Part shown: positions 873 through 3,448 of the stretch, piece by piece
Position numbering within the stretch: the stretch's first letter is position 1
Layout of the letters: each line of letters begins with the position of its first letter
NCBI GenBank assembly: GCA_964571845.1
Contig: CAZNDM010000050.1
Coordinates: forward strand, 11,676-75,675
Direction: 5' to 3'
DNA from: an uncultured bacterium
Lineage (GTDB): Bacteria > Hydrothermota > Hydrothermia > B15-G9 > WFZT01
Length of the DNA stretch: 64,000 nt
The notes under the pieces: model-generated
The model's input: the letters and a program-made list of their open reading frames with translations, nothing else
The model's database searches: none
What the model was told of the DNA's origin: nothing
Made by a program: the position numbers and the translations under genes

Positions 873-2552
873 ATGAAGGTCCTCATTGTTGGATCTGGTG
901 GAAGGGAACACGCCCTTGCCTGGAGAGTTAAACAGTCAGGCGCAACGGTTTATGTTGCTCCGGGAAATGGTGGAACCGCACTGATTGCCTCCAATGTGGA
1001 CATTCCGGCACACGAAGTGGAAAGGATTGCTGAATTTGCTAAAGCCAATGGGATAGATCTCACCATCGCTGGTCCCGAGCTTCCCATTAGTCTTGGCATC
1101 TATGATGAATTTGCCCGCAGGGGACTTAAGATCCTTGCACCGTCGAGAAGTGCATCAAGACTCGAGGCTTCGAAAATATTTGCGAAAAACTTTATGAAAA
1201 AATACGGTGTGCCAACAGCCCCATACAGAACTTTTACGGATTTTAATGAGGCGAAAAATTACGTTAGCGAGATCCAGGAATTTCCCCTCGTTATAAAAGC
1301 CGACGGACTTGCCGCAGGAAAGGGTGTTGTAATCGTGAAAGACCGGGATAGTGCGGTGGAAACCCTCAAAAGTTTTATGGTTGACGGCAGGTTTGGAGAT
1401 GCCTCCCGAAAGGTTGTCGTTGAAAAATTTCTCGAGGGGCAGGAGTTTTCTATTTTTGTTTTAACTGACGGAGAGAACAGTGTTTATGTTGGTGGAGCCT
1501 GCGATTACAAAAAGTTACTCGAGGAAGACAGGGGACCGAATACCGGTGGAATGGGGTCAGTGGCTCCCATACCGTTTCTCGATGGCGAAAAACTGAAGAG
1601 GGTGGAGGACGAGATCATCAGTCCCACACTCGAAGGTATCAGAGCGGAGGGGATGGTTTACAGAGGATTCCTTTACTTCGGTTTAATATGGACAGAGGAT
1701 GGGCCTTTTGTGCTGGAGTACAATGTGAGACTTGGTGATCCGGAGACCCAGGCAATATTACCGATTTTCGAGGGTGATTTTCTTGATCTTGTCGTAAGAA
1801 CCGTCGATGGGAATCTGAAGGGAGTTAGTGTGCCGGAGCCAGAGAAGAAGGCGGTTACCGTTATCGCCGCTTCACTTGGTTATCCCCTGAGTTATCAGAA
1901 GGGCAAAGAGATAACTGGAATTTCCGGTGATTACCTGATTTTTCACGCAGGGACAGTTTTGAAAGACGGTAAATTTTACACAAGTGGTGGAAGGGTGCTG
2001 GGGGTAACAGGGGTTGGTCAGACCTTTGAGGAGGCTGCAGCAAAGGCATATGAGGGAATTGAGAAAATTCACTTTGAGGGAATTTTTTACAGAAGAGACA
2101 TTGGGGAGAAGTGGTTTAAGAAAATTCTTATAGTGGCGGGGAGTGAATCAGACAGGGAATTTGTAGGTTATGGGACCGAAATCCTGGACAGGCTGGGAAT
2201 CCCATACGAGTTCAGGATTATTTCGGCACATAGAAATTTACCGGAACTGATGGAGTTTATTAAAAATTTAAGGGGTTACGAGGTTATCATTGCGGTTGCA
2301 GGGCTTGCTGCCCATCTGCCGGGGGTAATTGCCGGACTTACCAAATTACCCGTAATCGGTGTTCCGAGAGATACAGGTCCGCTGAACGGACAGGATGCTC
2401 TTTATTCTATGGTTCAGATGCCCAGGGGTGTCCCTGTAGCAACGATGGCAATAGGTAAGCATGGAATGATTAATGCTGTTCTGTATGCCTTAAGAATTCT
2501 CGCAACCCGTTATTCCTGGGCTGCAGAAGCCCTCAAAAACTGGAAGAGATGA
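873..2552 (+). CDS. purD: Bifunctional phosphoribosylamine-glycine ligase (PurD) fused to N5-CAIR mutase (PurE)
   Basis: N-terminal ~425 aa match PurD ('MKVLIVGSGGREHALAW', ATP-grasp, C-terminal 'FYRRDIG'). This runs directly into a PurE-like domain ('ILIVAGSESDREF...GLAAHLPGVIAGLTKLPVIGVP'). One continuous 559-aa ORF. Confidence 0.85.
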   Translation: MKVLIVGSGGREHALAWRVKQSGATVYVAPGNGGTALIASNVDIPAHEVERIAEFAKANGIDLTIAGPELPISLGIYDEFARRGLKILAPSRSASRLEASKIFAKNFMKKYGVPTAPYRTFTDFNEAKNYVSEIQEFPLVIKADGLAAGKGVVIVKDRDSAVETLKSFMVDGRFGDASRKVVVEKFLEGQEFSIFVLTDGENSVYVGGACDYKKLLEEDRGPNTGGMGSVAPIPFLDGEKLKRVEDEIISPTLEGIRAEGMVYRGFLYFGLIWTEDGPFVLEYNVRLGDPETQAILPIFEGDFLDLVVRTVDGNLKGVSVPEPEKKAVTVIAASLGYPLSYQKGKEITGISGDYLIFHAGTVLKDGKFYTSGGRVLGVTGVGQTFEEAAAKAYEGIEKIHFEGIFYRRDIGEKWFKKILIVAGSESDREFVGYGTEILDRLGIPYEFRIISAHRNLPELMEFIKNLRGYEVIIAVAGLAAHLPGVIAGLTKLPVIGVPRDTGPLNGQDALYSMVQMPRGVPVATMAIGKHGMINAVLYALRILATRYSWAAEALKNWKR

Positions 2553-3448
2553 ATAGCTGGGATGAGGTCAAAAGAAAAATAGAAGAGATAAGGTCAAAAG
2601 GTGGGAAGATCGTCTTTACAAATGGTGTATTTGACATTCTTCACAGGGGGCATGTGGAATACCTTGAGTATGCCAGATCACTGGGGGATGCACTGGTTGT
2701 AGGAATAAACACTGATGAATCTGTCAGACGGATTAAAGGTCCTGCGAGACCCATAAACACACTCGAGGACAGGATGTTTGTCCTACAGCATCTTGATGTA
2801 GTGGATTTTGTTGTGCCTTTTGAGGAAGATACTCCTTTGAAACTCATCGAATTTATTGAGCCCGACATACTTGTCAAGGGAGCGGATTACGAACTTGATG
2901 AGATCGTGGGGAGAGAGTTTGTGGAAAAAAGAGGCGGCAGAGTTGTGAGAGCACCGCTGAAAGAGGGTTATTCCACCACGAAACTCATCAAAAAAATCGT
3001 TGAAATGTCAAAGGAACTTGGCGTTGACAAGATGGAGCTCAGAACCCCATTTGTAGCTGTTGATGCCATAATTCAGATCTTTGATGGAGAGAAGTTTAAG
3101 GGGATCGTTCTGATCGAGAGGAAGTATCCGCCTTATGGTTTTGCACTTCCTGGTGGCTTTGTGGATTACGGAGAAAGTGTCGAGGAGGCGGTTATCAGGG
3201 AGGCAAAGGAGGAGACAGGACTGGATGTGCGGAATTTAAGGCAGTTTCATGTTTATTCGGATCCATCGAGGGATCCGAGAAGGCACACACTTTCAGTGGT
3301 TTTTACATGTGAAGCAGAAGGCAGGCCAGTTGGAAAGGACGACGCAAGGAGGGCTCATGTATTCAAACTCGAGGAACTTCCCCTCGAAAAGATGGCTTTT
3401 GACCACAAAAAGATTTTGATAGATTTTATAAAACGCAACCCATACTGA
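2549..3448 (+). CDS. D-glycero-beta-D-manno-heptose-1-phosphate adenylyltransferase (HldC/RfaE domain II)-like domain fused to a NUDIX hydrolase domain
   Basis: N-terminal '[15 protein letters not shown]...FEEDTP...LVKGADY...[11 protein letters not shown]' closely parallels RfaE domain II with an (H/T)xGH motif. The C-terminus has a perfect Nudix box '[23 protein letters not shown]'. Overlaps the purD-purE stop by 4 bp (ATGA). Confidence 0.75.
   Translation: [299 protein letters not shown]

Follow-up and report, generated by a model that had tools for sequence, protein, structure and literature searches.

The locus described here raises the question of why an adenylyltransferase of the ADP-heptose synthase type (HldC, or RfaE domain II) should share one polypeptide with a Nudix hydrolase, and whether the two activities serve each other. 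The gene lies in a 64,000-nucleotide stretch of DNA from an uncultured hydrothermal WOR-3 (Hydrothermota) bacterium (assembly GCA_964571845.1, contig CAZNDM010000050.1, positions 11,676 to 75,675 of the forward strand); the whole of this stretch is referred to below as the window. The fusion itself is genuine and old, and selection has kept it. As to its meaning, we favour, at a probability of roughly 0.6, the reading that a housekeeping HldC was joined by loss of a stop codon to a likewise housekeeping ADP-ribose/ADP-sugar pyrophosphatase of the 2YYH subfamily, which would have given a stable bifunctional protein. The gene and its parts are as follows (ORF, open reading frame; aa, amino acids).

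2549..3448, plus strand: HldC-Nudix fusion ORF, 299 aa, ATG start
2579..3007, plus strand: HldC domain, TIGR02199 match at residues 11-151, similar to PDB 5x9q, with HldC motifs
3008..3034, plus strand: linker SKELGVDK (residues 154-161) and Met162, the presumed old start of a standalone nudix gene
3035..3439, plus strand: Nudix hydrolase domain of the 2YYH/O67435 subfamily, residues 163-297, matching PDB 2yyh and Pfam NUDIX
3155..3223, plus strand: Nudix box, G203-L225, an exact fit to GX5EX7REUXEEXGU
3254..3280, plus strand: YSDPSRDPR loop, residues 236-244, 3′ of the Nudix box at the position of the substrate X-loop

A preliminary description made from the DNA letters had read this ORF as an HldC/RfaE-II domain fused to a NUDIX domain, and both domains were indeed recovered by Pfam and NCBIfam. 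Pfam placed CTP_transf_like on residues 23-148 (E 2e-19) and NUDIX on residues 171-292 (E 2.5e-24). The product is thus predicted to be a bifunctional protein. Its transferase-plus-Nudix architecture is already known from NadM-Nudix proteins; HldC as the transferase appears to be new.

Given how rare the arrangement is, we considered whether it could be a frameshift, an assembly artefact or a decaying pseudogene, but rarity alone was the ground for asking, and nothing in favour of such an origin was found. Three independent contigs (ENA, JGI and Logan) encode an identical fusion protein, and no fewer than five diverged genomes retain an intact ORF. In most pairs of these genomes, synonymous sites have reached saturation (proportion of synonymous differences, pS, 0.66-1.0), whereas the corresponding non-synonymous proportion (pN) is 0.06-0.13 in both halves. 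The sole pair with a measurable synonymous rate, L004-L006, gave ratios of non-synonymous to synonymous rates (dN/dS) of 0.078 for the HldC half, 0.035 for the Nudix half and 0 for the linker. The same ORF in three assemblies, its survival beyond synonymous saturation and dN/dS below 0.1 in both halves reduce the chance of an artefact or pseudogene to a negligible one; purifying selection has been strong since the fusion.

The architecture is confined to one small, narrow clade of uncultured WOR-3. One genome was scanned for each GTDB species, and full-length copies at 87-90% identity turned up in the hydrothermal WOR-3 metagenome-assembled genomes (MAGs) L004-L006; with L085 included, fusion orthologues in WOR-3 MAGs are 85-90% identical. 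In a collection of 5.8 billion proteins, the full-length architecture was limited to six clusters formed at 90% identity (P0001-P0006; identity of at least 85%), and the next matches were single-domain HldC or HldE proteins at ∼60% identity. When 1.84 billion representatives at 50% identity were scanned exhaustively with HMMER, one cluster had the fusion architecture (P0004), and a motif screen of 411 retrieved proteins found no further combination of HldC and Nudix. The search for similar fusions that the preliminary description had proposed yielded a protein with the domains in reverse order (P0148, described below), whereas the same architecture is found in the one clade only.

How the two domains came together is suggested by their junction. 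The sequence SKELGVDK followed by Met162 is identical in five genomes, although each pair of genomes differs at 2-10 synonymous positions over junction residues 154-165, and the few amino-acid changes within these residues all lie C-terminal to Met162. This methionine aligns with the initiator methionine of standalone orthologues of the Nudix domain, e.g. P0154 (MFKVETPL…) and P0293 (MNLKTPF…). Because Met162 lines up with standalone start codons, the fusion was probably produced by stop-codon loss between adjacent hldC and nudix genes. Separate translation of the Nudix half from Met162 was also considered and rejected, as the AAGGAA motif ∼17 nt upstream is not conserved (AAAGAA in L085).

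The N-terminal half scored 203.7 bits against the NCBIfam model TIGR02199 (rfaE_dom_II), above the curated cutoff of 181.5, with the match spanning residues 11-151. The model for glycerol-3-phosphate cytidylyltransferase (TagD) reached 51.6 bits against a cutoff of 165, and that for phosphopantetheine adenylyltransferase (PPAT) 35 bits. Likewise, the best match in the PDB was HldC of Burkholderia pseudomallei (BpHldC, 5x9q; 140.6 bits, E 7.7e-40), with TagD at 54.8 bits and the choline and ethanolamine cytidylyltransferases ranking far below 5x9q. The affinity to cytidylyltransferases that would have undermined the HldC assignment is therefore not seen. The motifs expected of an HldC, those listed in the preliminary description among them, were all located, at TNG24, HRGH32, NTD54, KG, EDTP93, KGADY110 and STT142; NTD54 reads NSD in P0006. 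Docking on BpHldC has predicted that heptose-1-phosphate and ATP are bound by the motifs TNG, NSD, KG, ExTP, KGG and STT (PMC7993394). Phe143 of BpHldC is replaced by leucine in the fusion protein, as it is in several other HldCs (P0150, P0010).

With 55-66% identity to hundreds of HldC and HldE proteins, the N-terminal half is, as far as its sequence tells, a genuine and ordinary HldC, not TagD or another cytidylyltransferase. The HldC domain of HldE/RfaE and standalone HldC (5x9q) is orthologous to that of the fusion, but the partners differ: HldE carries a PfkB kinase, whereas the fusion lacks a kinase and its partner is C-terminal and a hydrolase. Consistent with this, the HldE model PRK11316 matches residues 4-152 only (model positions 325-473; 202 bits against a cutoff of 521), and Pfam found no PfkB domain (PF00294) in the fusion protein, which is accordingly not classed as an HldE.

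The C-terminal half matches Pfam NUDIX (PF00293) with 86.2 bits against a cutoff of 21.1. The perfect Nudix box announced in the preliminary description is confirmed: it carries E218, E221 and E222, with all catalytic glutamates retained, and is conserved in 15 out of 15 clade sequences. Judged by this box, the Nudix half is a catalytically intact pyrophosphatase. Its best PDB match is 2yyh, Aquifex aeolicus O67435 (E 4.5e-51, ∼65% identity over residues 163-297), so that both halves of the fusion have PDB homologues at ∼55-65% identity. The second PDB match is 2fml, the Enterococcus protein EF2700 of the NrtR family (68.9 bits), and further relatives are the Shewanella NrtR and the NadM-Nudix protein 2qjo (E 5.8e-07). 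Models of NadM-Nudix (PRK05379) gave at best 48.6 bits and the NtrR model 34 bits (E 2e-08), all far below the full-length cutoffs. Downstream of the box, at the position of the substrate X-loop (a concept from the survey of the Nudix clan, PMC5389931), the core Y-x3-RD-x-R-x-H of the YSDPSRDPR loop shows little or no variation among 24 family members, fused and standalone.

For the substrate, the closest characterised relatives are the guide. Proteins of the NrtR family (EF2700, 2fml; Shewanella, 3gz5/3gz8) bind ADP-ribose; in EF2700, the residues with which NadM binds ADP-ribose are conserved, and those NrtR relatives whose box is intact are active pyrophosphatases of ADP-ribose (PMC2330246). 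Proteins of this family differ from the fusion in having a C-terminal winged-helix DNA-binding domain and, in most cases, a degenerate Nudix box, whereas the fusion has a perfect box and no DNA-binding domain. Because these relatives and NadM-Nudix bind or hydrolyse ADP-ribose, the substrate class of the fused Nudix domain is most likely ADP-ribose or similar ADP-sugars, which would be split into AMP and sugar phosphate. In the classification of Srouji et al. (2017), ADP-ribose pyrophosphatases of the NadM/NrtR type correspond to the clade ‘ADP-ribose (2)’.

Standalone orthologues of this Nudix domain, including Aquifex O67435, are 52-69% identical to it and occur in Aquificota, Spirochaetota, Desulfobacterota, Planctomycetota, Omnitrophota and other WOR-3. 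The fused domain equals them at all family-invariant motifs (the Nudix box, YSDPxRDPRxH, DDA and FDHxxI). They differ in that they either stand alone as one domain (134-160 aa) or form the C-terminal half of a tandem-Nudix protein, and in that they never adjoin hldC at the loci examined: HldC was found within 10 kb of a standalone 2YYH-type Nudix gene at 0 of 25 loci. The neighbours of the standalone genes are heterogeneous (CCA-adding-like, Mur-ligase-family, GlmU, RmlD, SbcD-like and STAS proteins); a shared housekeeping theme around nucleotides or envelope sugar nucleotides was entertained for them and dropped as too weak to use. The tandem proteins, ∼310-330 aa in length, combine a Zn-ribbon Nudix domain with a 2YYH-type one and were seen in the Omnitrophota/Planctomycetota loci L061, L062, L064-L066, L070, L071, L075 and L082. 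Their gene follows that of a CCA-adding-enzyme or poly(A)-polymerase-like protein by ∼0-60 nt, within a conserved cluster of nrdR, glyA, rpiB, purE, recG, rsmD and coaD lookalikes, which are named here by sequence appearance only.

HldC is linked to Nudix in two further ways. In L007 (4024-4967; WOR-3 HyVt-237) and L008 (1618-2561; Ca. Hydrothermota AUK073), a 162-aa hldC gene is followed after 9 nt by a 148-aa nudix gene. These are the nearest non-fused relatives found, and their HldC is 63-66% identical to that of the fusion. The Nudix gene sits where the fused Nudix domain does, yet it belongs to another subfamily, namely the Ap4A-hydrolase type (best PDB match 3i7u, E 5.8e-23; 2yyh only E 2.5e-06). 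The second case is P0148 (L084 3229-4197), in which a Zn-ribbon Nudix domain (residues ∼40-153) precedes HldC (residues ∼177-316); it is known from a single contig of a high-GC MAG (GCA_016192655.1), with no heptose genes nearby. Like the fusion, both linkages physically join an intact Nudix to an HldC that exceeds the TIGR02199 cutoff (200.6 bits for the L007/L008 type, 188.4 bits for P0148); unlike it, they consist of separate genes or of domains in the opposite order, and their Nudix subtypes are different.

At ∼45 loci of HldE or HldC, no Nudix-box ORF was found nearby. The number of HldC-Nudix linkages is within chance expectation, because there are ∼1,900 HldC clusters (50% identity, E < 1e-30, HMMER) and several Nudix genes per genome, from which a few chance adjacencies are to be expected. 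HldC has other fusion partners as well: a GmhB-like HAD protein (P0010), the CMP-Kdo synthetase KdsB (P0150), a putative cyclase (P0182) and ThiD2 (P0191). In P0146 the partner is a second copy of HldC in tandem. Two Planctomycetota loci (L014 10336-11211; L024 ∼10299-11015) encode HldE followed by a diverged HldC-like paralogue at 39-40% identity, and the one in L014, a complete ORF, has a long C-terminal tail rich in alanine, proline and lysine.

Outside the fusion gene itself, three features of the window bear on its setting.

873..2552, plus strand: fused purD-purE gene, 559 aa; TIGR00877 (purD) 502.1 bits, TIGR01162 (purE) 152.8 bits
3445..3476, no strand assigned: hairpin over the stop codon of the fusion gene, between convergent genes; minimum free energy -21.4 kcal/mol, z = -6.06, with 0 of 200 shuffled sequences as stable
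19934..20923, minus strand: GT9-family glycosyltransferase; Pfam Glyco_transf_9 48.8 bits, cutoff 22

The purD-purE ORF unites the domains GARS_N/A/C and AIRC, and it is itself a fusion, which every clade member examined has kept 5′ of the HldC-Nudix gene. Its TGA stop codon overlaps the ATG of the fusion gene as ATGA, and this overlap, which the preliminary description had taken as a sign of translational coupling, is conserved among relatives. The order btpA, purD-purE, hldC::nudix is shared by L001, L002, L085 and L086, and (MlaE/ABC)-btpA-purDE-hldC::nudix is kept across five diverged genomes, in which the downstream genes differ. As the hairpin overlaps the stop codon, the fusion gene is likely the last of its operon; a T-run is absent on the plus strand. 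The convergent gene (3481..4161, minus strand) encodes a proline-rich protein of 226 aa with a signal-peptide-like N-terminus and no Pfam match, which is also present in L001.

With respect to the remainder of the heptose pathway, no GmhA, HldA kinase, GmhB or HldD was found in the window, where ∼45 ORFs were searched with Pfam or NCBIfam, or in the 10 kb upstream. The HldE kinase, GmhA or GmhB gene that the preliminary description had hoped to place elsewhere was thus not found in this interval. WOR-3 bacteria have inner and outer membranes and some lipopolysaccharide (LPS) genes (PMC12285271), and a search for heptose genes in the supplement of the WOR-3 isolate paper found none. The GT9 ORF had been taken for a heptosyltransferase. 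Its membership of the Glyco_transf_9 family holds, but it falls far below every NCBIfam heptosyltransferase cutoff, the best model being heptosyltransferase III with 59.3 bits against a cutoff of 170.2. It is therefore a possible, weakly assigned user of ADP-heptose.

In the reading that we favour, the N-terminal half would exert ordinary HldC activity, while the C-terminal half, as a 2YYH-subfamily Nudix enzyme, would cleave ADP-ribose or similar ADP-sugars to AMP and sugar phosphate. In one WOR-3 lineage, the stop codon between hldC and an adjacent nudix gene would have been lost, with Met162 marking the old start, and the product would thereafter have been retained as the last gene of the btpA, purD-purE, hldC::nudix operon. 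Some observations sit uneasily with this account. No member of the 2YYH subfamily has been characterised, and the NadM-Nudix models match the Nudix half at only ∼48 bits. Within the 64-kb window, the other steps of the heptose pathway could not be located. Moreover, the near-invariant linker and the two further HldC-Nudix linkages hint at something beyond an accidental join.

These last points lead to functional coupling, a possible but doubtful alternative in which the tethered Nudix domain would hydrolyse ADP-heptose, or off-pathway ADP-sugars (ADP-beta-glucose, ADP-mannose) made by a promiscuous HldC, and so would act as pool governor or metabolite proofreader where ADP-heptose is produced; the preliminary description had suggested such coupling, as proofreading or a regulated futile cycle. 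Fusions often join functionally linked proteins, and the PfkB kinase (in HldE), the GmhB-like HAD protein and KdsB are pathway neighbours of HldC; however, HldC is also joined to the seemingly unrelated cyclase and ThiD2. Its ties to Nudix in the L007/L008 gene pair and in P0148 would fit coupling too, yet the Nudix subtype is a different, unrelated one in each of the three linkages, and a handful of chance adjacencies is expected from the number of HldC clusters alone. The conservation of the linker at the protein level speaks for a joint function, as does the use of beta-glucose-1-phosphate by BpHldC (PMC7993394), whereas the motifs of the fused Nudix domain are unchanged from those of standalone orthologues that have no hldC within 10 kb, and ∼45 HldE/HldC loci have no Nudix-box ORF nearby. 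Coupling is further weakened by the lack of any other heptose-pathway gene in the window or 10 kb upstream, where the GT9 protein is a family-level match only, and by the literature searched, which holds no paper naming HldC together with Nudix and none that mechanistically ties a Nudix enzyme to ADP-heptose. A more specific proposal, namely a dedicated ADP-heptose or ADP-beta-hexose pyrophosphatase that is tethered to HldC and sets or proofreads the ADP-heptose pool, we regard as unlikely.

Two other alternatives concern the identity of one half each. It is improbable that the Nudix half is a MutT-type 8-oxo-dGTPase unrelated to ADP-sugars: JGI and UniRef name the standalone orthologues ‘8-oxo-dGTP diphosphatase’ and PDB 2yyh bears the title ‘8-oxo-dGTPase domain’, but these labels are generic, and the Nudix clan survey assigns no function to 2YYH (PMC5389931). 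The MutT models remained well short of their cutoffs (TIGR00586, 26.8 bits against 97.9; PRK10776, 30.8 bits against 148), and ADP-ribose-type Nudix domains match better. More improbable still is that the N-terminal domain adenylylates a different substrate, such as nicotinamide mononucleotide or nicotinic acid mononucleotide, as part of a divergent NadM-Nudix-like enzyme of NAD metabolism. The NadM-Nudix proteins of Synechocystis (slr0787, PDB 2qjo) and Francisella (PDB 2qjt) do show the same order of domains, an HxGH nucleotidyltransferase (PF01467) and then Nudix (PF00293), and their Nudix halves are detectably, if distantly, related to that of the fusion. Their transferase, however, is a nicotinamide mononucleotide adenylyltransferase, not HldC, and all PRK05379 sub-models align to residues 162-296 only (25-49 bits against cutoffs of 354-449), without ever reaching the N-terminal half. 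A nicotinate phosphoribosyltransferase gene at 26008..27207 (512.7 bits), a NAD kinase gene 8 kb upstream in L001 and the window's lack of other heptose-pathway genes would suit such an enzyme. Against them stand the score of the N-terminal half above the HldC equivalog cutoff, its 55-66% identity to HldC and HldE of LPS-producing bacteria, the presence of the docking-predicted heptose-phosphate motifs, and a lineage with two membranes and LPS genes. Nor is the recycling logic of NadM-Nudix directly transferable to the HldC fusion, because ADP-ribose arises from NAD breakdown whereas the nucleotide set free by heptosyltransferases is ADP and not an ADP-sugar.

ADP-heptose serves universally as the donor for the LPS inner core, and it is also a potent bacterial signal, to which mammals respond through the ALPK1 pathway. 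In the literature searched, no enzyme was described whose role is to degrade it. If the fused Nudix domain did hydrolyse ADP-heptose, it would reveal that the sugar-nucleotide metabolism of the envelope includes a step of control or proofreading, and would be the first described bacterial ADP-heptose hydrolase; it could serve as a thermostable reagent for ADP-heptose removal, and the linkages in L007, L008 and P0148 would reflect an unrecognised general need for ADP-heptose control. If it does not, the gene would still offer a clean natural case of fusion through stop-codon loss, a warning for annotation that PF01467 plus PF00293 is not always NadM-Nudix, and a way to learn what the 2YYH subfamily does, which is widespread and has a solved structure. 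Unless biochemistry reveals ADP-heptose hydrolysis, the interest of the fusion is modest.

Elsewhere in the window, Rfam and tRNA scans gave no matches. Between the gene of the proline-rich secreted protein and a ferritin/Dps-like gene lie 927 bp (4162..5088) without a convincing ORF, Rfam match or tRNA match. A degenerate, purine-rich tandem repeat without Rfam match (25439..25709; 35-bp period, 7.8 copies, 69% matches) is placed between the genes for an RNA cyclase (RtcA) and the nicotinate phosphoribosyltransferase; because its period is not a multiple of three, the overlapping ORF at 25380..25787 on the minus strand is probably spurious. The nicotinate phosphoribosyltransferase gene (plus strand, PRK08662) stands directly 5′ of a sugar-nucleotide cluster, which comprises two NTP_transferases, including a long-form RmlA, followed by RmlC, RmlB and RmlD. 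Another tandem repeat, whose period is 42/84 bp (14/28 aa), occupies 62094..62379 within a 300-aa ORF (61655..62557, minus strand) that has no Pfam match.

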